From the NCBI GenBank assembly GCA_938030745.1, contig CALHIP010000007.1:13180-77179 (forward strand): a stretch of DNA of 64,000 nt. Direction: 5' to 3'. The stretch is from an uncultured Patescibacteria group bacterium (GTDB lineage Bacteria > Patescibacteriota > Patescibacteriia > UBA2591 > CALHIP01). Positions 6,053 through 54,866 of the stretch are shown one piece after another. Made by a program: the position numbers and the translations under genes. Below the pieces are notes generated by a model that searched no databases, had not been told where the DNA came from, and worked only from the letters and a program-made list of their open reading frames with translations. How positions within the stretch are numbered: position 1 is the stretch's first letter; the number at the start of each line of letters is the position of its first letter.

Positions 6053-6086
6053 AATCGGCTTCTAAAAAGAAGCCGATTTTTATTTT
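6053..6086 (+). terminator. rho-independent terminator hairpin
   Basis: The hairpin AATCGGCTTC-TAAAAA-GAAGCCGATT is followed by TTTTATTTTT. Confidence 0.6.
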
Positions 6087-6303: not shown

Positions 6304-6339
6304 AGACGGGAGTAAAATTTACTCCCGTCTTTTTCTTTC
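6304..6339 (+). terminator. rho-independent terminator hairpin
   Basis: The hairpin AGACGGGAGT-AAAATTT-ACTCCCGTCT is followed by TTTTCTTTC. Confidence 0.7.
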
Positions 6340-6376: not shown

Positions 6377-6400
6377 AAAATGTTCCACGTGGAACATTTT
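6377..6400. promoter_or_regulatory. 24-bp perfect palindrome AAAATGTTCCAC|GTGGAACATTTT
   Basis: It is an exact inverted repeat with a CACGTG core. It lies 32 bp downstream of the SplB-like stop codon. It could be an operator, or a hairpin terminator for the convergent transcripts. Confidence 0.4.
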
Positions 6401-12038: not shown

Positions 12039-13268
12039 TTGCCAACTTCTAAGGTATCTTTTTTGTTTTTTAGTTAACCGATCAATCTTTATTCCTAAAG
12101 ACTTAAGTTTTAAAAAAGCAATTTTTTCCTCAAGTTGTTCAGGAAGAAAATAAACTTTTGGAATTAATTTTTTTGCATTTTTAGCTAAATATTCTTGAGC
12201 TAATGCTTGACTAGCAAAACTTAGATCCATAACTTCAGAAGGATGGCCTTCAGCTGAAGCTAAATTGACTAAACGGCCTTCAGCTAATAAATAAATTTTT
12301 TTACCATTTTTTAAAATAAACTCCTCAAGATTGTTTCTAATTAATCTTTTTTGTTTAGCAAGCTTGTTTAAATCTTTTAGATTTATTTCAACATTAAAAT
12401 GACCAGCATTAGCTAAAATAGCACCATTCTTCATTTTTAGAAAGTGCTCTTTTCTTAAAACATCAATGTTGCCAGTGACAGTCACAAAGATATCACCAAT
12501 TTTTGCTGCTTTATAAGAAGGTAAGACTTCAAAACCATCCATTTTTGCCTCAAGCGCTTTAATTGGGTCTTTTTCGCAAACAAAAACTTGAGCACCCATA
12601 CCTTTAGCTCTTTGGCTTAAACCTTTACCACAGAAACCGTAGCCAAAAACAACAAAATTTTTTCCAGCTAAGAGGATATTAGTTGCTCTTAAGATTCCAT
12701 CAATTGTTGATTGGCCAGTTCCATAACGATTATCAAAAAGATTTTTTATTTTCGCTTCATTAACAGCAATCACCGGAAAAAGAAGTTTATTTTCTTTTTC
12801 TAAATTTTTGATTCTTAAAACACCAGTTGTTGTTTCTTCAGAAGCACCTAAAACTCTTTGTTTTTTTCTTATTGCTAGACTAATTAAATCTGCTCCATCA
12901 TCAATTAACAAGTCGGGATTAAAAGATAAAACTTTTTTAAGCGCTTTCTGATAATATCCAAGAGTTTCACCTCGATAAGCAAAAATAGGAATTTTAAAAT
13001 AAAAAGAAAGAGCAGCCATAACTTCGTCTTGAGTTGATAAAGGATTTGAGGCACAAAGGAAGACTTTTGCTCCACCTATTTTAAGACAACGAATTAAATT
13101 CGCTGTCTCAGTTGTAATATGTAAGCAAGCACCAATTTTTAGATTTTTAAAAGGTTTAGTTTTAGCAAAATTTCTAGCGATTAAAGATAAAACCGGCATC
13201 CGAGAAAATGCCCAATTGATTTTCTTTTTTCCTATTGGTGCTAATTTTTTTAAGTTTATTTTTTTCAT
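12024..13268 (-). CDS. ahcY: adenosylhomocysteinase (S-adenosyl-L-homocysteine hydrolase)
   Basis: The NAD-binding motif GYGFCGKG and conserved AhcY N-terminal blocks are present. Confidence 0.85.
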   Translation of the reverse strand: MKKINLKKLAPIGKKKINWAFSRMPVLSLIARNFAKTKPFKNLKIGACLHITTETANLIRCLKIGGAKVFLCASNPLSTQDEVMAALSFYFKIPIFAYRGETLGYYQKALKKVLSFNPDLLIDDGADLISLAIRKKQRVLGASEETTTGVLRIKNLEKENKLLFPVIAVNEAKIKNLFDNRYGTGQSTIDGILRATNILLAGKNFVVFGYGFCGKGLSQRAKGMGAQVFVCEKDPIKALEAKMDGFEVLPSYKAAKIGDIFVTVTGNIDVLRKEHFLKMKNGAILANAGHFNVEINLKDLNKLAKQKRLIRNNLEEFILKNGKKIYLLAEGRLVNLASAEGHPSEVMDLSFASQALAQEYLAKNAKKLIPKVYFLPEQLEEKIAFLKLKSLGIKIDRLTKKQKRYLRSWQLGTI

Positions 13269-13270
13269 AA

Positions 13271-14935
13271 TTACACAACTCTAAAAACTTCTTCAACTGT
13301 CGTTATTCCTTTGATAGCCTTTAAAATTCCATCTTGAGCCATTGTTATCATTTTTTGTTCTTTTAAAACTTTTCTCATTTCATCTTCTGAAAGAGTTGTT
13401 TTTAAAATTAATTTTTCAATTTCAGAATTATTGATAAAAAATTCAAAGATACCAATTCTTCCTTTATAGCCAATATTTTGACAAGATTCACAACCTTTAC
13501 CTTGGTAAAATTTTAATTTCTTAAAATCAATTTCTTTTTTTTCTTCTTCTGGAAGATCATCAAGAATTTTTTTTACTTTCTCTTCTAATTCAGAAGGGAG
13601 TTTCGTTTCTTCCTTACAATTTTGACAAATTCTTCTAACCAATCTTTGACCCATGATCATGGTTAAAGCTGGAGCTAAAAGAAATGGTTTAACTCCTAAA
13701 GCCAAAAATCGTGGGATTGCTCCAGCTGCATCGTTAGTATGTAAAGTTGAAAGAACAAGGTGGCCAGTTAAAGCAGCTTGAATTGAAACTTCAGCTGTTT
13801 CTTGATCTCTGATCTCGCCAATCATAATAATATCAGGATCATGTCTCATAATTGATCTGAAATTTTTAGCAAAAGTTTGTCCCTTTGAATAATCAATCTG
13901 AGTTTGAATAACCCCCTTTAATTCGTATTCAATTGGATCTTCTAAAGTAATGATTTTAACTTCCGGCCTAGCTAACTTAGATAAAATCGCATAAAGAGTT
14001 GTTGTTTTTCCAGCTCCGGTTGGACCAGTAACAATAATCATTCCATTTGGTCGAGAAATTTCTTTTTTGACTATTTCAAGAGATTTTTCTCTTAAACCAA
14101 GATTTTCTAAACTAATCTGATAAGATGGCATTAAAAGTCGGATAACTACACTTTCTCCAAAAGAACTTGGAACAGTTGAAACCCTGACATCAATTTTTTC
14201 TTCTTTAAAGAAGATTGAAAAATGACCATCTTGTGGTTGGTCAGTAATATTAATTTTTAAACCAGATAAAAGTTTTATTCTTGAGATAACTGGCGGCCAT
14301 AATTTTTTAGAAATTAGAGCAACATCATGCAAAATACCATCAATTCGAAAACGAAATTTTATCTTCTCTTCTTCTGGTTCAAGATGAATATCTGAAGCTC
14401 TTGATTTTATGGCAGTAGCAATAACTAAAGTTACTAAATCAGAAAGTGAACATTTTTGGATCTCTCTTTGTAAATCAGAAAAATTTTTTATTTTTGTTTG
14501 ATAATTTAAAAGGTCTTCCTCTGTGATTTCTACTCCTTTTTCTCTCTTTTTAATTTTTGGTAAACTTTTATAAAGTTTTAAAGCTGATAAAAAACTATTC
14601 TCAGAAGTAAGATAGAGGAAGACCTCTAAATTAGTTTCATTTTCTATTTTTGTTTTTAATTCTAAAACTTCTGGTTTAAAAGGATCAAGAACAGCTAAAT
14701 TAACTTTCCTTTCATCTAAAAAAAATGGAATAAGACCATTTTTTTCTGCTTCTTCTTGAGAAACAATTCTTAAAGTTTCTGGCGGAATAGAAAAACCTTT
14801 TAGATTAACATAAGGTAGGCCAAGAGCAACTGCTTTTTTCTGTGTTTCTTCTTCTATTTTTTTAATTTTTAGCTCTTCAAGTTTCCTTTTAAGCTCTAAC
14901 CTTTTATCTTCGGGCTGGGCGTATTTTTGATCCAT
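13271..14935 (-). CDS. pilB: type IV pilus assembly / type II secretion ATPase (PilB/GspE family)
   Basis: It has a GspII_E N-domain, a Walker A (GPTGAGKTTT) and a C-terminal tetra-Cys motif. Confidence 0.8.
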   Translation of the reverse strand: MDQKYAQPEDKRLELKRKLEELKIKKIEEETQKKAVALGLPYVNLKGFSIPPETLRIVSQEEAEKNGLIPFFLDERKVNLAVLDPFKPEVLELKTKIENETNLEVFLYLTSENSFLSALKLYKSLPKIKKREKGVEITEEDLLNYQTKIKNFSDLQREIQKCSLSDLVTLVIATAIKSRASDIHLEPEEEKIKFRFRIDGILHDVALISKKLWPPVISRIKLLSGLKINITDQPQDGHFSIFFKEEKIDVRVSTVPSSFGESVVIRLLMPSYQISLENLGLREKSLEIVKKEISRPNGMIIVTGPTGAGKTTTLYAILSKLARPEVKIITLEDPIEYELKGVIQTQIDYSKGQTFAKNFRSIMRHDPDIIMIGEIRDQETAEVSIQAALTGHLVLSTLHTNDAAGAIPRFLALGVKPFLLAPALTMIMGQRLVRRICQNCKEETKLPSELEEKVKKILDDLPEEEKKEIDFKKLKFYQGKGCESCQNIGYKGRIGIFEFFINNSEIEKLILKTTLSEDEMRKVLKEQKMITMAQDGILKAIKGITTVEEVFRVV

Positions 14936-14958: not shown

Positions 14959-16335
14959 TTATCGATTATAAATCCTCTGCCGGATAAGCTCTATTTCTTG
15001 CTTAATCCTTCCTTCTTCTTCAACCTCTTTTTTAATCTTCTGCCAAGCATGAATGGCAGTGGTATGATCTCGATTACCTAATTCTTTACCAATTAAAGGA
15101 AAAGAGGCATTAATTTCTTCTCTTAATAGATACATCGCTACTTGACGAGGAATAACCAGTTCTTTTTTTCGAGAAGGACTGATCAATTCTGAAAGTTTTA
15201 GATTATAAAAGTCAGCAACAATCTGAAGTAATTCTTTTGGCGAAAGAGCCGCTTTCCTTGGGAGATTAATTAAGCTATCAACAATTTTTTTTGTCTCTTC
15301 TAAAGAAAATGGCAATTTGTTTAACTCATGGAAAGCAATGACTTTATTTAAAGCACCTTCAAGTTGGCGGACATTATTTTGGATATGAGTGGCAATATAT
15401 TGAACAATTTCCTTTGGTAGCTCAACATTTCTTTCCTTTGCTTTTCTTTCTAGAATAGCAATTCTTGTTTCTAAATCAGGTGGTGAAATATCAACAATCA
15501 TACCTCCTTCAAAGCGAGAAATTAGTCTTTCTTCAATAGCAGGAATAACCCTTGGTGGTCGATCAGAAGTTAAAACAATTTGTTTATCTTTCTGATAAAG
15601 AGTATTAAAGGTGTGAAAAAATTCTTCCTGAACTGCTTCTTTGCCAGCAAAAAATTGGACATCATCAACCAAAAGGACATCTTGAACTCGATAATTTTTT
15701 TTAAAGACATCCATTTTTCTCTCTCTAATTGCTTTAATGAACTCATTAGTAAATCTTTCAGCACTAATATATAATACTTTCTTTTTTTTATCAGTCTTTA
15801 AAATCTTATTCCCGATTGCCTGAAGAAGATGTGTTTTTCCTAAACCAACTCCACCGTAAATAAAAAGAGGGTTATATTTTTTTCCAGGAGCTTGAGCAAC
15901 AGCTACGGAGGCAGCAAAAGCAAGTTCATTTCCTTTACCGACAACAAAATTTTCAAAAGAGTAACGAGAATTTAAACCATGTTTGTTAGTCTCTAATTCT
16001 TTCGTTTCACTCTCTTCTTTAATTATTTCTTCTAAACTAACAAATCTTTTTTCTATTGAAGGAGGAATTTTTGTCTCAATTTTATAAACGATATTTTTTA
16101 TCTTATTATTAGTTGCATTTTGTAAAATATCTAAAATCATTTTATGATATTTTTTCTCAAACCAGAGTCTAGTAAATTCGTTTGGTAAAGAAATAACAAC
16201 TGTTTCGCCGTCATCTTCAATTGAAGAAATATAGGCATTTTTAAACCAAGTCATAAAATTAGCCCGTGAAAGCTGGAGCTCCATTTCTCCTAAAACAATT
16301 TGCCATAATTTTTCTTTTGTTAATTCGTTATTCAT
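14959..16335 (-). CDS. dnaA: chromosomal replication initiator DnaA
   Basis: The AAA+ Walker A is GGVGLGKTHL. The C-terminal DNA-binding signature is GKELGNRDHTTAIHAWQKI. Confidence 0.9.
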   Translation of the reverse strand: MNNELTKEKLWQIVLGEMELQLSRANFMTWFKNAYISSIEDDGETVVISLPNEFTRLWFEKKYHKMILDILQNATNNKIKNIVYKIETKIPPSIEKRFVSLEEIIKEESETKELETNKHGLNSRYSFENFVVGKGNELAFAASVAVAQAPGKKYNPLFIYGGVGLGKTHLLQAIGNKILKTDKKKKVLYISAERFTNEFIKAIRERKMDVFKKNYRVQDVLLVDDVQFFAGKEAVQEEFFHTFNTLYQKDKQIVLTSDRPPRVIPAIEERLISRFEGGMIVDISPPDLETRIAILERKAKERNVELPKEIVQYIATHIQNNVRQLEGALNKVIAFHELNKLPFSLEETKKIVDSLINLPRKAALSPKELLQIVADFYNLKLSELISPSRKKELVIPRQVAMYLLREEINASFPLIGKELGNRDHTTAIHAWQKIKKEVEEEGRIKQEIELIRQRIYNR

Positions 16336-16679: not shown

Positions 16680-17171
16680 ATGAGCAGTCGTCGTTTAGCG
16701 AGAATAGTTACTTTTCAAATTCTTTTCCAATTAGATTTTTCTGGTTTTTTTGAAAAGAAAACAAAACAAGAAAAAGATTTAAAAGAGATTTTAGATTATA
16801 ATTTTAAAAAATTTCTTTCTTCCTCTGAAGATAAAGATTTTTCCAAAAAATTAATTTTTGAAATAATAAAAAAATCAGAAGAAATAGATAAATTAATTAA
16901 AAAATTTGCTCCTCAATGGCCAATCAATCAGATTTCTTTAGTTGATAGGAATATTTTAAGAATAGGAATAGCGGAGCTTGTTTTTTTAAAAGAGGTTCCT
17001 GAAAAGGTAGCTATTAATGAGGCAATAGAAATAGCAAAAACATTCGGTTCTGAAACATCTGGTCGATTTATCAATGGTGTTTTAGGAGCAATTTATGAAG
17101 AGTTAAAGGGAAAAGCGAAAAATCAATTTAATAAGGAAAATAATCATGGAAAAGAAATTAAACAATCTTGA
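16680..17171 (+). CDS. nusB: transcription antitermination factor NusB
   Basis: The N-terminus [17 protein letters not shown] is conserved. The central motif [17 protein letters not shown] is conserved. Confidence 0.8.
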
Positions 17172-17844
17172 AAAAAAAATAAAAATTAAATTTAAAAATC
17201 AGAATCTCCTTCGTCAGGCTCTTATTCATCGTTCATATTTAAATGAACATCCTGAAGAAAAATTAGATGATAATGAAAGATTAGAATTCTTAGGCGATGC
17301 AATCATTGAATTCGTTGTTACTGAATATCTTTATAAAAATTATAAAGAACCAGAAGGAATTTTAACATCTTGGCGGGCTGGTTTGGTTAATGCAAAAAGA
17401 TTGGCAAAGATAGCTCGTGAAATTTCTTTGGATAAATATCTTTATCTCTCCAAAGGTGAACTTCTTTCTTCTTCGGAAAAAGCAAGAGAAAATATTTTAG
17501 CTAATAGTCTTGAAGCTTTAATTGGTGCTATTTTCCTAGATCAAGGAATTAAGAAAGCAAAAAAATTTATTAGAGAAAAAATAATTTCAAAACTTCCTTT
17601 CATTTTAAAATATAAACTTTTCCAAGATCCAAAAAGTAAATTTCAGGAATTAGCCCAAGCAGATTTTAAAATTACTCCAACTTATAAAGTTTTGAAAGAA
17701 ACAGGTCCTGATCATTTAAAAGAATTTACTGTTGGTGTTTTTCTTAATCAAAAACTTATTGCCAAAGGAAAAGGGAAAAGTAAACAAGAGGCAGAGATAA
17801 AAGCAGCAAAAATAGCCTTAAGAAAATATAAAACTATTAAATAA
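17146..17844 (+). CDS. rnc: ribonuclease III
   Basis: The signature is [22 protein letters not shown]-terminal dsRBD is present. Confidence 0.9.
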
Positions 17845-21673: not shown

Positions 21674-21678
21674 AACTT

Positions 21679-21750
21679 GCCCTCATAGCTCAATGGATAG
21701 AGCAGATCCGTCCTAAGGATAAGATGGGGGTTCAATTCCCTCTGAGGGCA
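21679..21750 (+). tRNA. tRNA-Arg (anticodon CCT)
   Basis: Cloverleaf features are acceptor GCCCTCA/TGAGGGC, anticodon loop GTCCTAA and T-loop GGTTCAATTCC. Confidence 0.75.
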
Positions 21751-21764
21751 TAAATTTTTTAATT

Positions 21765-21835
21765 GGGCTCATAGGTAAATGGTATACCGCAGTCTTCGCA
21801 TGACTGAATTCTGGGTTCGATTCCCAGTGAGTCCA
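21765..21835 (+). tRNA. tRNA-Ala (anticodon CGC) with the G3:U70 identity pair
   Basis: The acceptor is GGGCTCA/TGAGTCC, giving G3:U70. The anticodon loop is TTCGCAT. The T-loop is GGTTCGATTCC. Confidence 0.8.
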
Positions 21836-21838
21836 AAA

Positions 21839-21920
21839 GCCGCGGTGGCGAAATTGGAAAACGCACTGGGCTTAGGACCCAGGGGGGAAACCCTTGAGAG
21901 TTCGAGTCTCTCCCGCGGCA
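21839..21920 (+). tRNA. tRNA-Leu (anticodon TAG) with a long variable arm
   Basis: It is 82 nt. The anticodon loop is CTTAGGA and the T-loop is AGTTCGAGTCT. The long variable arm fits a class II tRNA. Confidence 0.85.
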
Positions 21921-21934
21921 AGAATAAAAATTTT

Positions 21935-22285
21935 ATGAAAACAAAAATTATTGTTTTGATTTTCATTATCTTTTTTGGTTTGCTAGTTAATTATGAAGAA
22001 GAGACTGGTTCTTTTTTGAAAATTTTTCCAATTGTTAAAAATCCATCTTTAGCTTTTATATCTCTTTATAAAAATAACAACAAAAATTTCTTTCAAAAAG
22101 AAAACTTCTGGGGTTGGCCATTTCCTTATTGGTTTAAAAAAGAATTTAATTTAAAATCTTTATTTTTCGATTTAATTTTTTATTTAATTATCTGGTTAAT
22201 TCTTATTTTCTTCTGGTGGTTTATTTCTGCTTTTAAAAGATTTCATCAAAAAAGGAAAAAACCTCCTTATAAATTTACTTTGTAA
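21935..22285 (+). CDS. hypothetical membrane protein of about 116 aa, taken from the downstream portion of ORF 21779..22285
   Basis: Hydrophobic N- and C-terminal segments flank an aromatic-rich middle. The upstream part of the tracked ORF overlaps the tRNAs and is not coding. Confidence 0.3.
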   Translation: MKTKIIVLIFIIFFGLLVNYEEETGSFLKIFPIVKNPSLAFISLYKNNNKNFFQKENFWGWPFPYWFKKEFNLKSLFFDLIFYLIIWLILIFFWWFISAFKRFHQKRKKPPYKFTL

Positions 22286-22303
22286 AATTATCCACAGTTT
22301 TTC

Positions 22304-22332
22304 TTGACTTTTTAAATTTTATTCTTTATAAT
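22304..22332 (+). promoter_or_regulatory. sigma70-type promoter for the 23S-5S rRNA transcript (TTGACT-N17-TATAAT)
   Basis: The hexamers read directly are TTGACT at 22304-22309 and TATAAT at 22327-22332. A perfect DnaA box (TTATCCACA) abuts at 22288-22296. Confidence 0.55.
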
Positions 22333-22382
22333 ATAATTAAAATACAATGTTTATGAAACCAAAAAACCTTAAATTAAAAATT

Positions 22383-22465
22383 CCAAGCGGTTAATTTTGG
22401 TCATTTTCGCCTTAACCAAAAAAACCGCTTGGAAAAGCGGTTTTTTGGTTTCCGCTCTTTTAAAA
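22383..22465 (+). promoter_or_regulatory. rRNA leader with mutually exclusive hairpins, one of them terminator-like, and a boxA-like element (CGCTCTTTTAAAA)
   Basis: CCAAGCGGTT (22383-92) can pair with AACCGCTTGG (22423-32). Alternatively ACCGCTT-GGAA-AAGCGGT plus a T-tract at 22424-22449 forms an intrinsic-terminator-like hairpin. AGCGG/CCGCT precedes the boxA-like sequence at 22453-22465. Confidence 0.4.
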
Positions 22466-22487
22466 TTTTAAAAATAAAGTCTTATAC

Positions 22488-25468
<2,981 letters not shown>

Positions 25469-25511
25469 CCCATATAAGCCTTTATTTTTAAAAATTTAAT
25501 TTTTCTCATTT

Positions 25512-25634
<123 letters not shown>

Positions 25635-30283: not shown

Positions 30284-31021
30284 TTAATAGCCAATAGAGA
30301 GTCTTTCAATTAAAAAATTGGGAAAACCTTTCTTTCTCATTTTTTCTTGAGTTCTGTAATAATCATATTCTATCCGATGGTATTCTAAAGTCAAAGCTTC
30401 ATTGTCAAAGATAATAAAACTTGCTTTTGGATTTCGATCACGTGGTTGGCCAACAGAACCAGGATTGATAATATAGAAAGAATCTTTTTCAAACTTTAAA
30501 AATGCTTTATCTGGCGGAAATCTAAATTGATAAATTTTATTTTCTCTTTTTTCAAAAATTGTTGGGATATGTGAATGGCCAACAAATAAAACTTTTTCTT
30601 TAAAAAGAGTAAAATTTTCTTCAGCCTGATAAATTTCTAAAAGATATTCCCAAATCGGATCACGAAGTGAACCATGGGCAAGGATTATCTCTTTTTCTGG
30701 TTTCAAAGTTAAAGGCAGATTGCTTAAAATTTTTTTATTTTCTTGGGAAAGCTCTGAGGCATTAATTTTTACTGCTTGAGCAGCATAAGGATTAAAATCA
30801 AAAATTGAGATTTTTCCAATAACTGCTAAATCATGATTGCCTACTACAGAAATTATTTTTTTCTTTTTTAATAATTCTACACACTCATTTGGGTTTGGTC
30901 CATAACCGACAATATCTCCTAAATGCCAGATTTTTTTGATTCCCCTTTTTTCTAAATTAAAAAGAACTGCTTGAAAAGCCTCTAAATTTGAATGGACATC
31001 AGCTAAAATTCCTATTTTCAT
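30284..31021 (-). CDS. calcineurin-like metallophosphoesterase
   Basis: Motifs are MKIGILADVHSN, GDIVGYGP, VVGNHD and VGHSH. Confidence 0.7.
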   Translation of the reverse strand: MKIGILADVHSNLEAFQAVLFNLEKRGIKKIWHLGDIVGYGPNPNECVELLKKKKIISVVGNHDLAVIGKISIFDFNPYAAQAVKINASELSQENKKILSNLPLTLKPEKEIILAHGSLRDPIWEYLLEIYQAEENFTLFKEKVLFVGHSHIPTIFEKRENKIYQFRFPPDKAFLKFEKDSFYIINPGSVGQPRDRNPKASFIIFDNEALTLEYHRIEYDYYRTQEKMRKKGFPNFLIERLSIGY

Positions 31022-31034
31022 ATCAATTTAACTA

Positions 31035-31053
31035 AATCATTTACAGCGGCCGC
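31035..31053 (-). promoter_or_regulatory. 18-bp element ATCATTTACAGCGGCCGC (copy 1 of 2), 14 nt upstream of the phosphoesterase start codon; it contains the GC palindrome GCGGCCGC
   Basis: An identical 18-mer recurs at 35263-35282 upstream of the MFS start codon. Both copies are in the same orientation relative to the downstream gene. Confidence 0.5.
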
Positions 31054-31070
31054 TTTAAAGAGTTTAGTGG

Positions 31071-31622
31071 TTATTCGGATAATTTTTTTGTGGTAAAAAT
31101 AAAAATTTCTGTTTTTGGATCACGCCAAGCATCAGCTGGTAAACCAGCTTTATAAACACAAAGGCTACTTAAAAATTCTTCTAAATTATAATTGAATTCT
31201 TCTGCTACTTCTGGTAAGAAAACTCCACCTTTAAAACCCTTTTTGATAATTACCCCATGTTTTCCCAACTCTATTTCTTTAGATGGATCTTTTATTTTTC
31301 TCAATGGTGAAATAATTGAAATTTCAATCTTAATTTCTTTTAATTCTTCTAAACTTAAAGGAAAAAAACGAGTATCTTCAAAAGCAGCAGCAATAGCCAT
31401 TTTTGCTACTGCTTCAGCTAATGGATATCTTGGTTCTAAATGACCAATACAACCACGAAGATTACTATCCTTTTTTAAAGTCACAAAAACTGCCATTTTT
31501 TCTTTTAATTTCTCTGGTACTTCAAATTTTGGAATTTCTTTATTTTTTAAATAAAATTCTATTGAATCTCGAGCAATTTTTAATAATAATTTTTTTTCTT
31601 CTTCTTTAAATTCATTTTTCAT
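31071..31622 (-). CDS. AMMECR1-domain protein (AmmeMemoRadiSam system component A-like)
   Basis: The signature is LRGCIGHLEPRYPLAEAVAKMAIAAAFEDTRF. Confidence 0.8.
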   Translation of the reverse strand: MKNEFKEEEKKLLLKIARDSIEFYLKNKEIPKFEVPEKLKEKMAVFVTLKKDSNLRGCIGHLEPRYPLAEAVAKMAIAAAFEDTRFFPLSLEELKEIKIEISIISPLRKIKDPSKEIELGKHGVIIKKGFKGGVFLPEVAEEFNYNLEEFLSSLCVYKAGLPADAWRDPKTEIFIFTTKKLSE

Positions 31623-31631
31623 ACAATTAAA

Positions 31632-32528
31632 TTAATCAGCAAAACGATAAAGACCAAATTTTTTAGCTAAATTAATTGCTTCTTGATATTCTTGATCAGT
31701 AATTGTTCGAGAAAGTTCTTGATAATTAAATGCTTTATAACAAGGCCGATATTGATCCATAATATTTAAGAAAGTATCTTTTGAAATTTCTTCAGCTAAA
31801 AATTTCATAATTTTTTCTGTTCCAGCTAAATTATTTGGTAAAACAAGATGTCGGACAATTAGTCCTTTTTTTGCAATTCCATTTTCAATAATCAAATTAT
31901 TCACTTGGCGATGCATCTCCTTTAATGCTTCTTTTAAAATCTTAAAATAATTTGGCGCTGATGAATATTTTAAAGCTATTTCATCATCACTATATTTTGC
32001 ATCAGGCATATAAATATCAATTATTCCATCTAAAATTTTTAAAGTTTCAACAGAATCATAACCATTTGAATTATAAACTAAGGGAATTTTTAATCCTTTC
32101 TCAATAGCTATTTCTAACCCTTCTAAAATTTGAGGTACTTGAGATGTTGGTGTGACCAAATTAATATTATGACAACCGATTTTTTGTAAATAAATCATCA
32201 TTTCAGCCAATTGATAAGGAGAAACTTCCTCACCATAATCTAATTGAGAAATCTCATAATTTTGACAAAAAACACAAGCCAAATTACAGGAAGTGAAAAA
32301 AATTGTTCCAGAACCATAATTACCAACTAAACATTTTTCTTCACCAAAATGAGGATGAAAAGAAGAGACTTTTGCTTTCCTTCCTAAACGGCAGAACCCT
32401 TTTTCATTTTTTAATCGATTAACATTACATTTTCTCGGACAAACATGACATGGATTTAAAAAAGAAATTGCTTTTTTTATTCTTTTTTTTAATTCTTCTT
32501 TTGAAAGATTAAGATAAGAAGGAAACAT
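31632..32528 (-). CDS. radical SAM enzyme partnered with AMMECR1 (PflA/PflX-like, AmmeMemoRadiSam-type)
   Basis: An N-terminal Cys-rich segment is CHVCPRKCNVN...GFCRLG. The radical SAM cluster is TSCNLACVFCQN (CxxxCxxC). Confidence 0.8.
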   Translation of the reverse strand: MFPSYLNLSKEELKKRIKKAISFLNPCHVCPRKCNVNRLKNEKGFCRLGRKAKVSSFHPHFGEEKCLVGNYGSGTIFFTSCNLACVFCQNYEISQLDYGEEVSPYQLAEMMIYLQKIGCHNINLVTPTSQVPQILEGLEIAIEKGLKIPLVYNSNGYDSVETLKILDGIIDIYMPDAKYSDDEIALKYSSAPNYFKILKEALKEMHRQVNNLIIENGIAKKGLIVRHLVLPNNLAGTEKIMKFLAEEISKDTFLNIMDQYRPCYKAFNYQELSRTITDQEYQEAINLAKKFGLYRFAD

Positions 32529-32530
32529 GT

Positions 32531-32998
32531 TTATAAATAACGATATTTATTTATCTGGTAAATAGCAATGCCAGCAGCAACAGCAACATTTAATGATTCT
32601 TTTTGGCCATACATAGGTAAATAAATAATTTTTTCAGCTCTTTTCAATAAAGATTTTGAAACTCCTTTTATTTCATTACCAACAATTAAAAGCAATGGAA
32701 ATTTTGGTCTGAATTTAGTATATAAAATGCTTTTTTTTGTTTGTTCTAAAGCAACAATATAAAAACCTTCTTTTTTAAGTTTATCAACTATTCGCCAAGG
32801 TTGCCAATGGTGTTCCCAAAAAACAGTTTTTTCTGCTCCTAAAGATACTTTTTTCATTTTCTCTGAATCTGGAGTTCCAGTGATTCCACCTAAAATGATT
32901 TTATCAATACCAGCTGCATCAGCAGTACGGAAAATTGCACCAACATTAAAAAGAGAGCGGATATTATCTAATAAAAGATAAAATTTTTTAGATCTCAT
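32531..32998 (-). CDS. SPOUT-superfamily (SpoU/TrmH-like) RNA 2'-O-methyltransferase, small form
   Basis: Motifs are NIRSLFNVGAIFRTADAAGIDKIIL and LLIVGNEIKGVSK...LPMYG...SLNVAVAAGIAIY. Confidence 0.7.
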   Translation of the reverse strand: MRSKKFYLLLDNIRSLFNVGAIFRTADAAGIDKIILGGITGTPDSEKMKKVSLGAEKTVFWEHHWQPWRIVDKLKKEGFYIVALEQTKKSILYTKFRPKFPLLLIVGNEIKGVSKSLLKRAEKIIYLPMYGQKESLNVAVAAGIAIYQINKYRYL

Positions 32999-33008
32999 TC
33001 TCTCAATT

Positions 33009-34073
33009 TTATTTTAAAATAGATTTTAAAGCTTGAGATTTTTCTGAAGAATTTAATTTTGCTTTACGAATTGCTTTCTCTAAAATAAAAATTGATAAAT
33101 CATATTGTTTTTTATTGATTGGATAAGGTGTACCATCTTTACCACCGTGAGCAAAAGAATATCTGACTGGGTCATGAAAACTCGGTTTAGCTCCATAAAT
33201 TAATTCGGAGATTAAAGCTAAAGCTCTTAAAGTTTTTGGCCCAACTCCTTCATAAGAAACTAATTCCTCATAACTTTTTGGATTTTTCTCATGAGCAGTA
33301 AATAAAATTTTTTGAATTCTTTTCTCAGTATCTGGTTTTAATGGAATCCAATGATATCGAGGCATATTTAAAATTCTAATTTTTTTAAAATCTTTAAGAA
33401 GAGTTTGAAAAGGACCTCGAACAATTTCTGTTGAAACTTCTCTTGTTTTTTTACTTTCTAAAGCAACTAAATTTAAAACTTTACCTTTCCAATCGCAACA
33501 GATAGCTGAATGTGGTTCTTCAACAAAATTTTTTAATTTTTCAGATAGCCAATGATAACGTCTAGCCATTTGAATTTCTGTATTCATCCCTTGCTGAATC
33601 ACTGTCCAATTACCATTTTTTGTGAAAATAAAAGTATGATGATAAATTTGAAAACCATCCTGTAAGCAAGAATTATCAACTTTAGCTACCATTTTACTAG
33701 CATAAATAAGTTTTGGTGTAAAATCTAATGAAAATTTTTGGCCATATTCTTCAATTTCAATTGGTGCTTTTCTTGAAGTTTTTCCTTTACCACCAACAAC
33801 AAAAAGCCCTAAAGATTTTTCTGTTCCTTTCAAAGCTTCTTTAATTGCTCCACAGACAGTAGTACTTAAACCAGAAGAATGCCAATCAAAACCTAAGACA
33901 CAGCCAAAAGATTGAAACCAATAAGGATCGGAAAGCCGACGTAAAACCTCCTCTTGAGAAAATTCATAAACCATTGCTTCGATAATTGCTCGAGCCAATC
34001 TTTTCATTCTTCTGAAAAGCCAAGCTGGTATTGTTCCCCAATGGAGAGGTAAATTAGCGATTCCTGTTCTCAT
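33009..34073 (-). CDS. conserved hypothetical protein with a C-terminal helix-hairpin-helix-like motif, possibly of the DUF763 type; it is not MEMO1
   Basis: A HhH-like motif is YEGVGPKTLRALALISE. No MEMO1 HAG/HS motifs are present. The family assignment is unverified. Confidence 0.45.
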   Translation of the reverse strand: MRTGIANLPLHWGTIPAWLFRRMKRLARAIIEAMVYEFSQEEVLRRLSDPYWFQSFGCVLGFDWHSSGLSTTVCGAIKEALKGTEKSLGLFVVGGKGKTSRKAPIEIEEYGQKFSLDFTPKLIYASKMVAKVDNSCLQDGFQIYHHTFIFTKNGNWTVIQQGMNTEIQMARRYHWLSEKLKNFVEEPHSAICCDWKGKVLNLVALESKKTREVSTEIVRGPFQTLLKDFKKIRILNMPRYHWIPLKPDTEKRIQKILFTAHEKNPKSYEELVSYEGVGPKTLRALALISELIYGAKPSFHDPVRYSFAHGGKDGTPYPINKKQYDLSIFILEKAIRKAKLNSSEKSQALKSILK

Positions 34074-34079
34074 ATTTTA

Positions 34080-35252
34080 TTATTTTACCATTTTCTTCTC
34101 AGTAGTAAAAAGCATTAATAAAATTGCTAGAATTGAAGTAAAAAAAGCAAAAAGAAAAACAGTTCTTGGACCGAAAAATTGCCAGAAGAAGCCAGCTAAA
34201 GATGAGGCAGCTAAAAATACTAAACCAGAAATCATTTGGAAAAATCCTAAAGTTTGACCTTTAAATAAAGGATGAGAAAATTCAGAAATGAAAGCAATTT
34301 GACTCGGCCTTAATGTTGCTTTGGCAAAACCAAATAAAACTAAAAGAGGAATAATTAAAGAATTTTTAAAACCAAAAACAAAACCTAAAACTGAAAGACT
34401 CCAAAAAAGATAAGCTAAAATAATTATCTTTTTTTTACCAATTTTATCAGCCAAACGAGAGATAGGATAAGCCATCAACATCATACTCATTGTCATGATT
34501 AAATAAAGAATTGGTATTGAAGTAACTGACCAGCCATTTTCTCTGGCATAGATAAGTAAAAATGAATAACTAAAAAATCCTAAAGCAAACAAAAGATTGG
34601 CAAAAAAGAAAATTTTTAAAGAGGGATGAAATTTACCAGGTGAAAATTTTAAAAAGGAGGGTTGAACTGGTAAAGCTCTTTCTTTGACCAAAGTGAAAAT
34701 TAAATAGGCACCAATTAAAGAAGGTAAGCCAGCAATAAAAAACATTTCCCGCGGCTTAAGGAATCTAATTAAAATAATGGCTGAAATAATTCCGAAAACT
34801 GCACCTAAATGATCCATTGCATCTAAAAAACCAATCGTTTGGGTTTTAAAACGATGATCAGCTATATCTAAAGCTAAAATATCTCTTGGTGTTTCACGAA
34901 TCTTACCAGCTCGATCTAAAATTTTAAAAGGAAAAAGTAGCCCCCAAAAATAAGTGATGGAATAGCCTAAACGAGCTAATCCACTTATTAAATAACCAAG
35001 CCAGATAAATGGTTTTCTTTTACCTAATTTATCAGAGAGCCAACCAGCAAAAGTTTGAGAAAAAGAAACAACTGCTTCACCGATTCCGTCAATTAGACCT
35101 AAAACACTCATTGGTGCTTTTAAAATCTCTCTGACAAAAACTGGCCAGATTGAATGACCAATTTCTGCTCCCAAATCGTTTAAAAAAGAAGTCGAGCCAA
35201 ATACAAGAATTGTTTTCTTTCTTCGATTATTAAAATCTTTTATTTTTTCCAT
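34080..35252 (-). CDS. MFS-family transporter
   Basis: There are about 12 predicted hydrophobic helices. An MFS loop motif (GWLSDKLGKRKP) is present. Confidence 0.8.
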   Translation of the reverse strand: MEKIKDFNNRRKKTILVFGSTSFLNDLGAEIGHSIWPVFVREILKAPMSVLGLIDGIGEAVVSFSQTFAGWLSDKLGKRKPFIWLGYLISGLARLGYSITYFWGLLFPFKILDRAGKIRETPRDILALDIADHRFKTQTIGFLDAMDHLGAVFGIISAIILIRFLKPREMFFIAGLPSLIGAYLIFTLVKERALPVQPSFLKFSPGKFHPSLKIFFFANLLFALGFFSYSFLLIYARENGWSVTSIPILYLIMTMSMMLMAYPISRLADKIGKKKIIILAYLFWSLSVLGFVFGFKNSLIIPLLVLFGFAKATLRPSQIAFISEFSHPLFKGQTLGFFQMISGLVFLAASSLAGFFWQFFGPRTVFLFAFFTSILAILLMLFTTEKKMVK

Positions 35253-35262
35253 AATCTTTCCT

Positions 35263-35282
35263 ATATCATTTACAGCGGCCGC
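35263..35282 (-). promoter_or_regulatory. copy 2 of the ATCATTTACAGCGGCCGC element, 13 nt upstream of the MFS start codon and just downstream of the rtcA stop
   Basis: The 18-mer is identical to copy 1 at 31035-31053. Confidence 0.5.
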
Positions 35283-35311
35283 GTGAAATCGTATAGTAAA
35301 GGAATTTAGAT

Positions 35312-36322
35312 TTATTCTTTAAAAATTTTATTTTTTTCTTTATCTATTTTAATTTTAATATCTAAAAATTTCTCTAAAAGCCAAATATGAGTTAAAAGAT
35401 GATTAGTAATTTTTGAAACAGTAAAAGCAAATGGTTTTTTACTAATAGCTAAATAAAGGACAATTTGGTCAGCTAAATAAGGATCGATTACTTTTTCTGA
35501 TTGATAATAATCAGAAAATTGTTGAGCTACTTCTTGACCTACTTTCTCAGCTGGCTTACCTTTTTCACCTAAAGAGGAAAAACCAGCTAAGATATTTTCA
35601 AATTTTACTTTCAAAAAAACAAAAGTTCCAGCTGATAATGCTTCTACCCTTTCTGCTAATATATTTATTCCTGAAAAATTTTTAAGAAAAGATTGAAGAG
35701 CATTTTTCTGACGTTCGGCAATAGAAAAAGGTAAATTTGCGACAACTGATAAACCAGAAATTTCTTCTATTTTTCCTCTTTCTAAAAAATCACTTGCCAC
35801 TAATTTCTGTATTGGCTGAACAAACAATCTTATTCTTCCTCCTCCTTTTGGATAAAAACCATATTTTTCTAATTTTGCTTCTGCTTTTATTCCTAATTTT
35901 TCTATCATTGGTAAAAAAACTTCGGAAAAATAATGAAAAGGCGGAGCCAACGGATTATGAGTTCCACCAACAATTAAAACTTCAGAAGGATGTTTTGAAA
36001 AAGAAAGAGGTAATAAAATAGTCTGAGCTACTAATGTTGTTGAACCAGCTGTACCAATATCAAATTCAAATCTACCAAATTTTATTTTTTTTGGTTCAAA
36101 TCTTAAAATTTTTGAGCCAATTTTTGCACCAGAAACTTTTGCCTGAGAAATTTCCTCAGCTGCTTTAACAGCAACTAAATGTTGAGCCTGAAGTCCTGGC
36201 TTTTTTCTTTTTGCCCGAATATTGAAAATTTCAATTGCTTGAGCAGCTAAAACTGATAAAGAAAGAGAAGTTCTTAAAATTTGCCCACCACCCTCACCAT
36301 AACTTCCATCTATTCTTAACAT
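35312..36322 (-). CDS. rtcA: RNA 3'-terminal phosphate cyclase
   Basis: The N-terminus is MLRIDGSYGEGGGQILRTSLSLS. It has the size expected of RtcA. Confidence 0.8.
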   Translation of the reverse strand: MLRIDGSYGEGGGQILRTSLSLSVLAAQAIEIFNIRAKRKKPGLQAQHLVAVKAAEEISQAKVSGAKIGSKILRFEPKKIKFGRFEFDIGTAGSTTLVAQTILLPLSFSKHPSEVLIVGGTHNPLAPPFHYFSEVFLPMIEKLGIKAEAKLEKYGFYPKGGGRIRLFVQPIQKLVASDFLERGKIEEISGLSVVANLPFSIAERQKNALQSFLKNFSGINILAERVEALSAGTFVFLKVKFENILAGFSSLGEKGKPAEKVGQEVAQQFSDYYQSEKVIDPYLADQIVLYLAISKKPFAFTVSKITNHLLTHIWLLEKFLDIKIKIDKEKNKIFKE

Positions 36323-38776: not shown

Positions 38777-38794
38777 AATATTTTAAAGAATTAG

Positions 38795-39487
38795 TTAATT
38801 TTCGGACCAACCTGTCTGCAGGAGGCAGGAATTGATCCAAAAAATAATTTAAGGAGCTCGACCTTTCTAAAATTGAATTTAAATTCTAACTCCTTAAGGT
38901 ATAAATAAAAGTTATTCTTTTTAATGCCGTGATATTTCATAAAATGTTCTTTGGCAAAAGTCCAGAAACTTTCTACTCTATTGATATGGGTCTAATGATT
39001 TTTGGGATGAATTAGATATTTTTATTTGTTAATTTTGCTGGCCAAAAAGTTTTAAATCATGATAGTTTCTGAATCTATCAGTATAGAAGATGCTTCCTTT
39101 TTCAGTTTTTTCTTTAAGCAATGTTTCTGATTTAACATTTGGAACAATGATGGTATAAATACGATTACTTCGCTCTAAAATGCCTAAAACAATGACCTTT
39201 TCAGCTGCGCCTTGACCACCGAAATAGGCTTCGTCAATTTCTCCTTTTAATTTTTCAAATTCCTGATCTAGAAATTCAACAATTTTTTCTCTGAACCTTT
39301 GATATCTTTGACTAACCGTATTGTAGCTCAAATTTAGAATTTTTGCTAACTGAAATCTCTAAAGGAAATATTTTAAAACTTCTAAATCTGTTTTAATTTT
39401 TCTGAGACTATACTTTTTCTGACATTTTTGCCATTTAATTCTCTTATCTTTAAGCCGGTAAAGATAGTTCTGACCACAAAAAAACAT
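38795..39487 (-). pseudogene. decayed IS1595-family (ISXO2-like) transposase gene with multiple frameshifts and stops; a remnant insertion sequence
   Basis: Three out-of-frame fragments were found. The first is an N-terminal zinc ribbon (MFFCGQNYLYRLKDKRIKWQKCQKKYSLRKIKTDL) with an SD (AGAGGAAG). The second is a middle DDE fragment (EIDEAYFGGQ...VLGILERSNRIYTIIVPNVKSETLLKEKTEKGSIFYTDRFRNY). The third is a C-terminal fragment (THINRVESFWTFAKEHFMKYHGIKKNNFYLYLKELEFKFN). Confidence 0.65.
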
Positions 39488-39717
39488 TTTCTTCCTCTTA
39501 AAATTTTGACAGCCAATTATATACCATAATTTTTCGCTTAAATACTACACTTTTAGTATATAGCTGGTCCAAATTTTAATTAGCTTATCAAATGGTTTTT
39601 ATAAGATTAATTGGAGGTTTACTTTAAAAATTTTTTCAAACTAATTAATGGATGTCAAATAAAGAAAATTTTTTTGATAAGACTTTTCTTAAATAATTAT
39701 TTTTGAAAGGATAAAAA

Positions 39718-42266: not shown

Positions 42267-43328
42267 ATGGGTTTTTCGGTTGGTATTGTTGGTTTACCAA
42301 ATGTTGGTAAGTCAACATTATTTAAAGCTTTAACAAAAAAGCAAGTTGAGATCGCCAATTATCCCTTTACTACAATTAAAGAAAATGTTGGAGTAGTAAA
42401 AGTTCCTGATGAAAGATTAGATAAATTGGCTGAAGTTTTAAAACCAAAAGAAGTTATTCCAACTCATATTGAATTTTTTGATATTGCTGGGTTAGTTAAA
42501 GGTGCTCATAAAGGTGAGGGATTGGGTAATCAATTTTTAGCAAAAATTAGAGAAACTGACTTGATTTGTCATTTAATTAGAAATTTCGAAGCAAAAAATG
42601 TTCCTCATCCAGCCGGAGAAATAAATCCTAAACGAGATTTAGAAATTGTCAATTTAGAATTAATTATGGCTGATCTATCAACTTTAGAAAAAAGATTAGA
42701 AAAAGTAAGAAAAGAAGCAAAAAGAGGAGATAAAAAAGCAATTAAGAATTTAACAATTTTAGAGAAAATAAAAGATGGTTTAGAAAAAGGTTTTTCTGTT
42801 CGTGACTTAAATTTAACTGAGGAAGAAAAAATAGAAATTAAAGATCTCAATCTTTTAACAATCAAGCCTGTCATTTATGTTTTAAATATCTCAGAAGAAG
42901 ATATAGGTGAGACAATTTCTGGGATTGGCGAAGCAATTCCAATTTGTGCTAAATTAGAAGCAGAATTATCAGAACTTAGTCCAGAAGAGGAAAAAGAATA
43001 TTTAGCTAGTTATGGTTTAAAAAAATCTCAACTTGATGATTTAATTGTTGCTGCTTACAAAACTTTAAATTTAATTACTTTTTTTACTTGCCAAAATGAA
43101 ATATTACAGGCCTGGACAGTTAAAAAAGGAGAAAAAGTGCCAGCAGCTGGTGGAAAAATTCATACTGATTTTGAAAAAGGATTTATTAAGGCTGAGGTTA
43201 TTAATTGGGAAGATTTAGTTAAAGTTGGGTCAGAATATTTAGCTCGAGAAAAAGGTTTGCTAAGAATTGAAGGAAAAGAATATGAAGTAAAAGATGGCGA
43301 TGTTATCCACTTCTACTTTAAAAGGTGA
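42267..43328 (+). CDS. ychF: ribosome-binding ATPase YchF (Obg-like GTPase family) with a C-terminal TGS domain
   Basis: The N-terminus is MGFSVGIVGLPNVGKSTLFKALT. It has the G-motifs and a TGS domain at the C-terminus. Confidence 0.9.
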   Translation: MGFSVGIVGLPNVGKSTLFKALTKKQVEIANYPFTTIKENVGVVKVPDERLDKLAEVLKPKEVIPTHIEFFDIAGLVKGAHKGEGLGNQFLAKIRETDLICHLIRNFEAKNVPHPAGEINPKRDLEIVNLELIMADLSTLEKRLEKVRKEAKRGDKKAIKNLTILEKIKDGLEKGFSVRDLNLTEEEKIEIKDLNLLTIKPVIYVLNISEEDIGETISGIGEAIPICAKLEAELSELSPEEEKEYLASYGLKKSQLDDLIVAAYKTLNLITFFTCQNEILQAWTVKKGEKVPAAGGKIHTDFEKGFIKAEVINWEDLVKVGSEYLAREKGLLRIEGKEYEVKDGDVIHFYFKR

Positions 43329-43404
43329 CAGTCACCGAAAAGAGGGGAAAGATAAGCTAGATAAATTCTATTAAATAAGGCGAAAAATTAAATTTGGCAA
43401 AATT

Positions 43405-44028
43405 TTAATCATTTTTCAGCAGATCTTTAATTACTTCCCAACTAAAACCTCGATTAGCTAAAAAACGAGCTATTTTTTGTTTTTGTAAAAATACTCCATT
43501 TGATGACTGAGATTCTTTTTTTAAAAGCTTCATTTTTTTTCTAATAAGTTGACGAGCAATTTCAATTTCATCTTTTTTTGAATATTTCTCCAAAGTTTTT
43601 TTAATAATCTCTTCAGCGATACCTTTTCGCTTTAATTCTTTCATAATGGAATATTTACCTCTTCCTGAAAGCTTTTTTGCTTCAAGCCAACTTTCAGCAA
43701 ATTTTTTATCATCAAGATAATTTAACTCTTTTAATCTTTTTAAAGTTTTTTTGATAATTCTTTGATCAAATTCCTTTTCTTTAAGTTTTTCTTCTAATTC
43801 TTTTTTACTTCGCGGTCTAATTCCTAACCAACGAAATGATTTTTCTAAAGCTTTTATTTGCTGATCCTTTTCTATAATCTTATTAATTTCTTTTTTTCCT
43901 AGAATTTTTCCTTTATATAAGTTAAAATCAGCTAAAATTTTCTTTGAGATACCGAAAGCAAATTTACCATCAATAAAAATATTGACTCTTGAACTTCTTT
44001 TCTGTTGAGTAATTTTAGTAATTTTCAT
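43405..44028 (-). CDS. recX: RecX-family regulatory protein
   Basis: N-terminal block: VNIFIDGKFAFGISKKILADFNLYKGKIL. Alpha-helical repeats follow. It has the size expected of RecX. Confidence 0.65.
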   Translation of the reverse strand: MKITKITQQKRSSRVNIFIDGKFAFGISKKILADFNLYKGKILGKKEINKIIEKDQQIKALEKSFRWLGIRPRSKKELEEKLKEKEFDQRIIKKTLKRLKELNYLDDKKFAESWLEAKKLSGRGKYSIMKELKRKGIAEEIIKKTLEKYSKKDEIEIARQLIRKKMKLLKKESQSSNGVFLQKQKIARFLANRGFSWEVIKDLLKND

Positions 44029-50189: not shown

Positions 50190-50197
50190 TTCAATAC

Positions 50198-50230
50198 AAA
50201 ATCCCGATCCCAATAAAGAATCGGGATTTT
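50198..50230. terminator. bidirectional intrinsic terminator between the convergent gdh and hup genes
   Basis: AAAATCCCGA ... TCGGGATTTT forms a 10-bp stem with a 13-nt loop. T-rich sequence lies on both sides. Confidence 0.6.
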
Positions 50231-50266
50231 GTTATCCAAAATAGGCTTAGTAAATAGAAATAATTC

Positions 50267-54792: not shown

Positions 54793-54843
54793 ATCAAATT
54801 TTTGCCATTTTTAAAAATTTTGCTTATTTGATAGATTTGATGC

Positions 54844-54866
54844 GGGTTTTAAACCCCTATTTTTCG
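54844..54866 (+). terminator. terminator-like hairpin GGGTTTTAAACCC plus T-tract after cca; it overlaps the htpX stop
   Basis: A short perfect stem is followed by CTATTTTT. Confidence 0.4.

Follow-up and report, generated by a model that had tools for sequence, protein, structure and literature searches.

A two-copy palindromic insert between stop and start codons in a Patescibacteria operon, a candidate intercistronic mRNA hairpin

Repetitive extragenic palindromic (REP) sequences and bacterial interspersed mosaic elements (BIMEs) of enterobacteria and pseudomonads are moved by REP-associated tyrosine transposases (RAYTs), and in mRNA their stem-loops protect the upstream message and uncouple neighbouring cistrons. 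They are imperfect palindromes of 20-40 nt with a GC-richer stem, they lie between co-transcribed genes after the stop codons, and they vary between close lineages. Here, we report an element with these same traits that occurs in two copies, copy A and copy B, in a 64-kb stretch of contig CALHIP010000007.1 (hereafter the window, meaning the whole stretch analysed) from an uncultured Patescibacteria metagenome-assembled genome (MAG). The element is a 38-nt palindrome able to form a stem-loop, and it is extragenic in a co-directional gene array, as REP sequences and BIMEs are. It differs from them in the absence of the conserved GTAG-type 5' tetranucleotide, its feet being ACTA... and ...TAGT or ...TAGG; in addition, its arms are AT-rich, its hairpin is weak, two copies are seen in 64 kb as compared with hundreds per genome, and the window holds no RAYT gene. 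By analogy, the element would work most like the intercistronic palindromes of the REP/BIME type, yet it cannot be filed as one of them.

The first-pass annotation of this DNA had pointed to a single 18-mer with an all-GC core placed ahead of two genes of the array, and this duplication is genuine and far beyond chance. On the plus strand of the window, ATCATTTACAGCGGCCGC is matched exactly at 31036-31053 and at 35265-35282 (two copies had been correctly called, with start positions off by 1-2 nt), and two matches were obtained in 0 of 100 dinucleotide-preserving shuffles, even with 3 mismatches allowed. Both occurrences of the NotI site GCGGCCGC in the window lie inside the 18-mer copies, 0.05 sites being expected in the 64 kb; the rarity ascribed to this site at the outset is real. 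With the rRNA and tRNA genes excluded, a survey of all-GC runs of at least 6 nt gives the two NotI cores as the sole intergenic all-GC 8-mers, and the two 18-mer copies are the only GC-containing 11-mers common to different intergenic regions (3.6 kb in total). The placement was also described correctly: both copies sit in stop-to-start gaps between minus-strand genes and in the same orientation, with the core reading GCGGCCGCTGTAAATGAT on the coding (minus) strand. The core follows the AMMECR1 stop codon (31071-31073) by 17 nt in copy B and the RtcA stop codon (35312-35314) by 29 nt in copy A. From the core to the next ATG, however, we measured 14 nt for the phosphoesterase (ATG at 31021) and 12 nt for the major facilitator superfamily (MFS) transporter (ATG at 35252), and not the uniform 13 nt that had been given for both.

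The 18-mer is the best-kept section of a larger unit, namely a 38-nt imperfect palindrome in which two AT-rich arms of 15 nt surround GCGGCCGC, the symmetry centre of both copies falling between GCGG and CCGC. The two copies are homologous over at least 38 nt, with 31 of 38 positions identical, and about 54 nt align at 74% identity. In a fixed register, the left flanks of A and B match at 10 of 15 positions (P ~0.003), and the arms are self-complementary at 11 of 15 positions in copy B (P ~5e-4) and at 9 of 15 in copy A (P ~0.012), where the pairing continues outward into the flanks (CCTTT / AAAGG). The proposed register pairs 83% of the cells, as against 27-50% if the partner is slid by 1-3 columns. 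Two of the mismatches carry the same bases in both copies, i.e., A opposite G in column 14 and C opposite A in column 7, which we take to mean common ancestry of the left arms and not convergence. One stem pair is altered on both sides, being A-U in copy B and U-A in copy A. The copies differ at seven positions in all (18%), so neither is a fresh duplicate of the other.

The comparison with relatives was made at syntenic loci whose DUF763 proteins are 75-84% identical, plus one locus found via the phosphoesterase; over the proteins, these syntenic relatives are about 72-84% identical to the window. In these relatives the spacing between AMMECR1 and the phosphoesterase is -4 nt (L020), +1 nt (L021), -1 nt (L027) or +3 nt (L063), and RtcA and the MFS gene overlap by 14 nt in L021, L022 and L023. 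Neither the NotI site nor a diverged copy of the element was found in any relative examined, including by a mismatch-tolerant search and by a covariance model. The protein ends at both spacers are collinear with those of the orthologues: AMMECR1 ends in ...IFTTKKLSE-stop as compared with ...IFTTEKIKE-stop, and the phosphoesterase starts with MKIGILADVHSNLEAF... in the window and with MKIAILSDIHSNLEAF... in a relative. Because the protein ends are collinear and the junctions of the relatives are tight, the 49- and 59-nt spacers of the window are lineage-specific insertions. Identity to the relatives is equal inside and outside the 4.2-kb interval between the copies (70-84%), so the genes were inherited vertically and the inserts arrived later. 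The element is therefore a recent lineage-specific insertion between stop and start and not a conserved control site of the operon. A mobile cassette, in which the element would have been acquired together with its downstream gene, was considered and rejected, since the MFS and phosphoesterase proteins are as similar to the orthologues of the relatives as their neighbours are.

Outside the two junctions, the element was not encountered again. From the two copies we derived a covariance model, which gave no further copy in the 64 kb of the window when run with the filters off, and none in 125 kb of the relatives; mismatch-tolerant matching (up to 13 mismatches in 37) in the window and the relatives likewise gave none. 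Among the GTDB species representatives, a set that is without the window's own genome, 16 single matches to the 18-mer were obtained where about 17 are expected by chance according to our own arithmetic (596 Gb, two strands), all of them in unrelated organisms and mostly of higher GC. The JGI metagenomes gave 32 single matches, again in other organisms, for the most part of higher GC, and in unrelated sequence; several of these matches recur as families of near-identical contigs. In both collections the 18-mer is present at chance frequency and in unrelated coding DNA. No 18-mer match was found in the viral contigs of the JGI scan, and BLAST of the spacers against 72,556 plasmids gave no match. 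Two Listeria-phage records share a 21-mer with the spacers in BLAST; a phage link was set aside as chance, the 21-mer of the inspected record lying inside an aldehyde-dehydrogenase-like coding region. A literature search for such elements in Patescibacteria, or for intergenic palindromes centred on GCGGCCGC, returned nothing relevant.

Short lineage-specific palindromic inserts recur at the junctions of this operon within the clade. L023 (ENA ERZ1744544) has a 60-nt spacer (10573-10632) at the same AMMECR1/phosphoesterase junction as copy B, and this spacer contains a 34-nt palindrome that is perfect and unrelated, AACATTCTGACATTCTTAAGAATGTCAGAATGTT (-19.8 kcal/mol, z -7.8), apparently inserted there independently. 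Different palindromes at one junction in two related lineages hint at an insertion hotspot or at a recurring benefit. L027 (Logan SRR22387781) carries two 36-nt palindromes at 10225-10260 and 10827-10862, ACTTGCCATCTATCA-CGATCG-AGATATTTGACAAGT and ACTCGCTATCTATCA-CGATCG-AGATATTTGTCGAGT, which have the same build as the window element (15-nt arm, GC palindrome, 15-nt arm) and an outer stem with a compensatory change of its own, T-A to C-G. This pair flanks a PaaX-like gene (PaaX_M domain) inserted between the radical SAM and AMMECR1 genes, and its first copy overlaps a perfect TTGACA-17-TATAAT promoter; the gene and the 36-nt palindrome are probably an autoregulated repressor and its operator.

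In sense RNA, the hairpin is the predicted minimum-energy fold of both copies, with -10.8 kcal/mol (z -1.8) for copy A in its 50-nt version and -7.5 kcal/mol (z -1.75) for copy B. A scan for -35/-10 pairs with 16-18 nt spacing placed no sense-strand sigma-70-like promoter over either copy; the nearest promoter-like site on that strand, at 35352-35325, is upstream within RtcA, and AT-rich DNA holds many such sites. The intrinsic terminator scan reports neither copy, and there is no T-run within 2 nt of the stem on either strand. No Rfam model reached its gathering score anywhere in the window, and at E <=5 nothing overlapped either copy within 30800-35500. The dual interpretation that had been offered for the repeated motif is only partly upheld. 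An RNA-level intercistronic element agrees with a stem-loop that exactly fills the gap, whereas an internal operator or promoter has little in its favour, as there is no sense-strand sigma-70 promoter, no regulator in the window and no element in the relatives. In a comparison by eye with consensus sequences, a dif/Xer site, a sigma-54 promoter, a LacI/cre-type operator and a DNA-uptake sequence did not fit either.

Taking these observations together, we tentatively read the pair as two paralogous copies of a small, non-coding palindromic insert, similar to REP sequences or to miniature inverted-repeat transposable elements (MITEs), that gives a weak intercistronic hairpin in the mRNA, a reading to which we assign slightly less than an even chance. 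Two inserts would have landed in, or been copied into, two junctions of the long co-directional operon, and in the operon mRNA each would form a weak hairpin, its GGCC tip GC-clamped, at 7-9 nt from the start codon that follows. Such a hairpin would break the stop/start coupling present in the relatives, and processing might occur at it, or 3'-exonucleases might be held up by it (the window has an RNase III gene, at 17146-17844). The predicted outcome is an operon mRNA split into three segments that differ in stability or translation. Shine-Dalgarno-like motifs precede just 2 of 54 genes, so initiation probably depends on local structure and a hairpin near the start could matter. It may also be that the effect is small and that the inserts are close to neutral. 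In both the window pair and the L027 pair, complementarity is kept within each copy (combined chance probability ~0.01-0.02 by our own rough estimate), which favours a nucleic-acid stem over base-specific contacts with a protein.

Several observations weigh against this reading. Just two copies are known, 4.2 kb apart and with no other in 64 kb, so a dispersed mobile family is not demonstrated; no REP-moving transposase (Y1/HUH RAYT) was seen among the 64 open reading frames (ORFs) of the window scanned with Pfam, and we saw neither terminal inverted repeats with a target duplication nor a consistent insertion target. The hairpins are weak, as 10-16 of 200 shuffles fold equally well, and a palindrome scan placed both copies below the clear terminator-like hairpins of the window. 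The lone compensatory pair is without statistical weight, there being two sequences, and is matched in 245 of 500 shuffles. While the left arm has 5 differences in 15 positions, the 18-nt core has none, and this could mean a sequence-specific constraint; under a uniform divergence of 18%, zero differences over 18 core positions has P ~0.03 by our own estimate, which is suggestive only.

The last point leads to the main rival of the hairpin insert, which we consider unlikely, namely that the near-palindrome TTTAxAGCGG/CCGCTGTAAA is an operator bound upstream of the two starts by a dimeric DNA-binding protein encoded elsewhere, perhaps as a repressor site or a roadblock that puts the MFS-AMMECR1 and phosphoesterase blocks under separate control. 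A core kept perfectly while its flanks diverged would be expected of such a site, as would the same orientation, the near-equal distance to the ATG (12 and 14 nt) and a palindrome length of 10-20 bp, which is typical of operators. The repeated site around the PaaX-like gene of L027, probably a palindromic repressor operator, is likewise a near-palindrome ahead of starts in this operon family and has a similar 15 + GC-centre + 15 build, and the L027 pair, flanking its gene with one copy over a promoter, indicates that such sites can accompany a regulator in the family. The window, in contrast, has no regulator gene adjacent to the copies and no transcription-factor gene among its 64 ORFs scanned with Pfam, and neither copy is overlapped by a sense-strand sigma-70-like promoter. 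The site is absent from all relatives though the genes it would regulate are conserved, the left half-site of copy A is degenerate (TTTCACGCGG where symmetry would require TTTACAGCGG), and the outer stem, although altered on both sides, is still complementary within each copy, which is expected of a nucleic-acid stem and not of base-specific protein contacts. The possibility that the copies are a site-specific recombination pair (att-, dif- or attC-like) flanking an excisable or integrated 4.2-kb MFS-AMMECR1 segment seems to us very improbable. Identical 18-bp direct repeats do bound a discrete gene block, their inverted arms around a central GC core resemble a recombinase core site, and the MFS and phosphoesterase genes are variably present among the relatives. 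DUF763, SpoU, radical SAM and AMMECR1, however, keep the same place in relatives that have no such sites, the identity to relatives does not change across the interval, and no integrase, Xer, IntI or any other tyrosine recombinase was found by Pfam in the 64 ORFs. Hybrid attL/attR sites would have swapped arms, against which the complementarity of each copy's own arms counts (window and L027 pairs), and copy A lacks the attC end motifs RYYYAAC / GTTRRRY. We give a similarly slim chance to the idea that paired hairpin sites (15-nt arm, GC palindrome, 15-nt arm) are an undescribed, structure-specific class around gene blocks, which would mark boundaries where genes enter or leave tightly overlapping operons, in a cassette shuffling distinct from that of integrons; the pairs that can be cited for it are those around the MFS-AMMECR1 block of the window, the PaaX-like gene of L027 and the aminotransferase gene of L023.

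Two further explanations concern the spacer DNA itself. On the plus strand, TTTACA-17 nt-TATAGT in copy A, or the same arrangement with TTTAGT in copy B, might be an outward promoter that sends antisense RNA into RtcA and AMMECR1. The match of copy A, 10 of 12 to the sigma-70 consensus, is among five tied at the top of 61 matches in 11 kb, the -35-like hexamer lies within the conserved 18-mer and the -10-like hexamer coincides with the conserved outer stem. We still hold such a promoter to be highly improbable: promoter-like matches are barely more frequent than in shuffles (61 vs 46 +/- 6.5), copy B is without the essential A at position 2 of the -10 hexamer, and downstream on the plus strand there is neither a plausible gene nor a known RNA. 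That the copies are an artefact, i.e., an adapter, linker or cloning scar with a NotI site, or an assembly mis-join, is scarcely to be credited. Synthetic DNA does often contain NotI sites, which genomes of 30% GC very rarely have; nonetheless the extra DNA comprises the full spacers of 49 and 59 nt and not just the 18-mer, and these spacers share the AT-rich composition of the genome and lie precisely between intact stop and start codons, the gene order across both sites agrees with that of the relatives, and both copies are also present in a separate Logan assembly of run ERR9287632. The spacers have no counterpart among the plasmids searched, their phage match is a chance 21-mer, and the source is an uncultured Patescibacteria MAG, which makes engineering implausible.

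Returning to the palindromic insert, its likeness to other described elements is also partial. Among the small palindromic inserts of reduced or AT-rich genomes, Rickettsia palindromic elements, Neisseria Correia elements and other MITEs are likewise lineage-specific palindromic insertions that leave genes undisrupted. They are, however, at least 100-150 nt long, unlike the window element, and come with terminal inverted repeats, usually with target-site duplications, or with in-frame insertion into genes, of which the window element has none; its termini are its least conserved parts, with a possible TAA duplication at copy B and none at copy A. Integron attC sites share with it the imperfect palindrome with conserved unpaired bases, the intercistronic position in a co-directional array, the single orientation and the greater weight of structure over sequence. 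The R''/R' motifs (RYYYAAC / GTTRRRY) are not formed, however, as copy B has ACTAAAC (6 of 7) with GTTAAAT out of register and copy A has no GTT; no integron integrase is in the window, and what the copies flank are core operon genes of vertical descent, not cassettes. HIP1 of cyanobacteria (GCGATCGC) is also an 8-bp palindrome with all-GC ends that is over-represented for the base composition, though it occurs about once per kb and within genes, whereas the two window sites are intergenic and embedded in a longer element. The element is neither a MITE nor an attC site, nor an intrinsic terminator or a member of any Rfam family; a lineage-specific small palindromic insert in two copies, nothing out of the ordinary in kind, explains it best, and it probably acts as a weak hairpin between cistrons. 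If this is true, it would be a small example of how the compact, tightly coupled operons of reduced-genome bacteria of the candidate phyla radiation (CPR) gain short palindromic spacers that break stop/start overlap, and a hairpin by the start codon would be one of the few handles on expression within an operon where Shine-Dalgarno sequences are hardly used. For the evolution of CPR genomes we consider this modestly interesting; no new regulatory system is revealed by it.

Table 1. Coordinates in the window of the two copies, their spacers and the adjoining genes.
Feature	Coordinates	Strand	Remarks
Copy A, 38-nt imperfect palindrome	35260..35297	-	ACTATACGATTTCAC-GCGGCCGC-TGTAAATGATATAGG (coding strand, 35297 to 35260)
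Exact shared core, copy A	35265..35282	-	NotI palindrome and first 10 nt of right arm
Spacer from RtcA stop to MFS start, 59 nt	35253..35311	-	Relatives with MFS: 14-nt overlap
RtcA (RNA 3'-phosphate cyclase), upstream of copy A	35312..36322	-	
MFS transporter, downstream of copy A	34080..35252	-	79% identical to L021 and L023 orthologues
Copy B, 38-nt imperfect palindrome	31031..31068	-	ACTAAACTCTTTAAA-GCGGCCGC-TGTAAATGATTTAGT (coding strand, 31068 to 31031)
Exact shared core, copy B	31036..31053	-	18-mer match
Spacer from AMMECR1 stop to metallophosphoesterase start, 49 nt	31022..31070	-	Four relatives: -4, -1, +1, +3 nt
AMMECR1, upstream of copy B	31071..31622	-	
Metallophosphoesterase, downstream of copy B	30284..31021	-	75-78% identical to fetched relatives; <=81% in database

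The window is chromosomal DNA of 30.6% GC with bacterial 23S and 5S rRNA genes, six tRNAs, dnaA, rpoB and rpoC, and its closest named homologues are those of Patescibacteria MAGs (best identity 84% in the DUF763 search and 81% in the phosphoesterase search). The array is described as a long co-directional RNA-repair/modification operon on the minus strand. Its 5' part holds Archease, RtcB, two small ORFs, an IS1595-type transposase fragment, a His-phosphatase, a phosphoenolpyruvate (PEP)-utilizer protein and RtcA; copy A, MFS, DUF763, SpoU, radical SAM, AMMECR1 and copy B form the middle, and the metallophosphoesterase, a nitroreductase, CutA and an aminotransferase come after copy B. From 38776 down to 28311, the intergenic gaps range from -26 to +26 nt, with the two element gaps (59 and 49 nt) as the exceptions. 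Further upstream, the 100-aa fragment of an IS1595-type DDE transposase (39029-39331, minus strand) is the only transposase trace of the window. It occupies the place of a ThiI/NFACT-R_2-like gene of the relatives, and on either side of it lie the array's two largest gaps, 38777-39028 (252 nt) and 39332-39717 (386 nt); fragment and gaps suggest past insertion-sequence activity and gene loss inside the operon.

Motifs 4-5 nt long that resemble a Shine-Dalgarno sequence were sought up to 21 nt upstream of the starts, and given that just 2 genes of 54 have one, translation in this organism seems to start with practically no use of them. Sequestration of a Shine-Dalgarno sequence in copy A, which we had considered, was dropped for the same low count. 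Strong GC-cored intergenic hairpins of terminator-like appearance are found at 6053-6078, 6304-6330, 22419-22446 and 50196-50232, with AGACGGGAGTAAAATTTACTCCCGTCT as an example and AAAAAACCGCTTGGAAAAGCGGTTTTTT looking bidirectional; all of these are much stronger than the NotI elements.

In the relatives, other short repeats were observed. L023 has the 21-22-mer AAAAAACGCATATGCGTGAAAA, which contains the 12-bp palindrome ACGCATATGCGT, on both sides of the aminotransferase gene (12200-12225 and 13475-13500), one copy lying over the start codon of that gene and the other in the gap with the convergent FolD gene. A common motif, TCCTACCAATTACG ... GAATTACGAAT, is present in spacers adjoining DUF763 in L023 (7921-8000) and L027 (9224-9306). 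One relative has it upstream of the gene and the other downstream, with the orientation reversed and with 9 or 39 nt between the blocks, and this motif may represent a further mobile intergenic element of small size in the clade. The rpoB gene of the window also contains the 13-mer CCTACCAATTACG once (61317), which is probably coincidence.

Elsewhere in the window, the 23S and 5S rRNA genes (21678-25631) are preceded by three tRNAs (Arg-CCT, Ala-CGC and Leu-TAG), with no 16S gene nearby. The 23S gene is bracketed by a 42-nt inverted repeat of 93% complementarity (22460-22501 and 25458-25499), which is probably the 23S processing stem. A perfect 16-bp palindrome, TGTTCCACGTGGAACA, is intergenic at 6381-6396 and agrees with the parS consensus; the region also holds DciA (5614-5922) and dnaA (14959-16335), and with these three features together the window is probably near the replication origin. 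A second repeated element of about 95 nt, the first copy of which gave no Rfam match, is located at 43320-43415 (plus strand) and 54780-54900 (minus strand). Its copies have in common the exact 18-mer GGTGACAGTCACCGAAAA (palindrome GGTGAC-A-GTCACC) and further blocks ...AGGGG..., AAATAAG and GGCAAAA.TTT.AT.CATTTT; they lie in the gaps where two pairs of genes converge (YchF/RecX and CCA-adding enzyme/M48 peptidase), and overlap the stop codons of the flanking genes.

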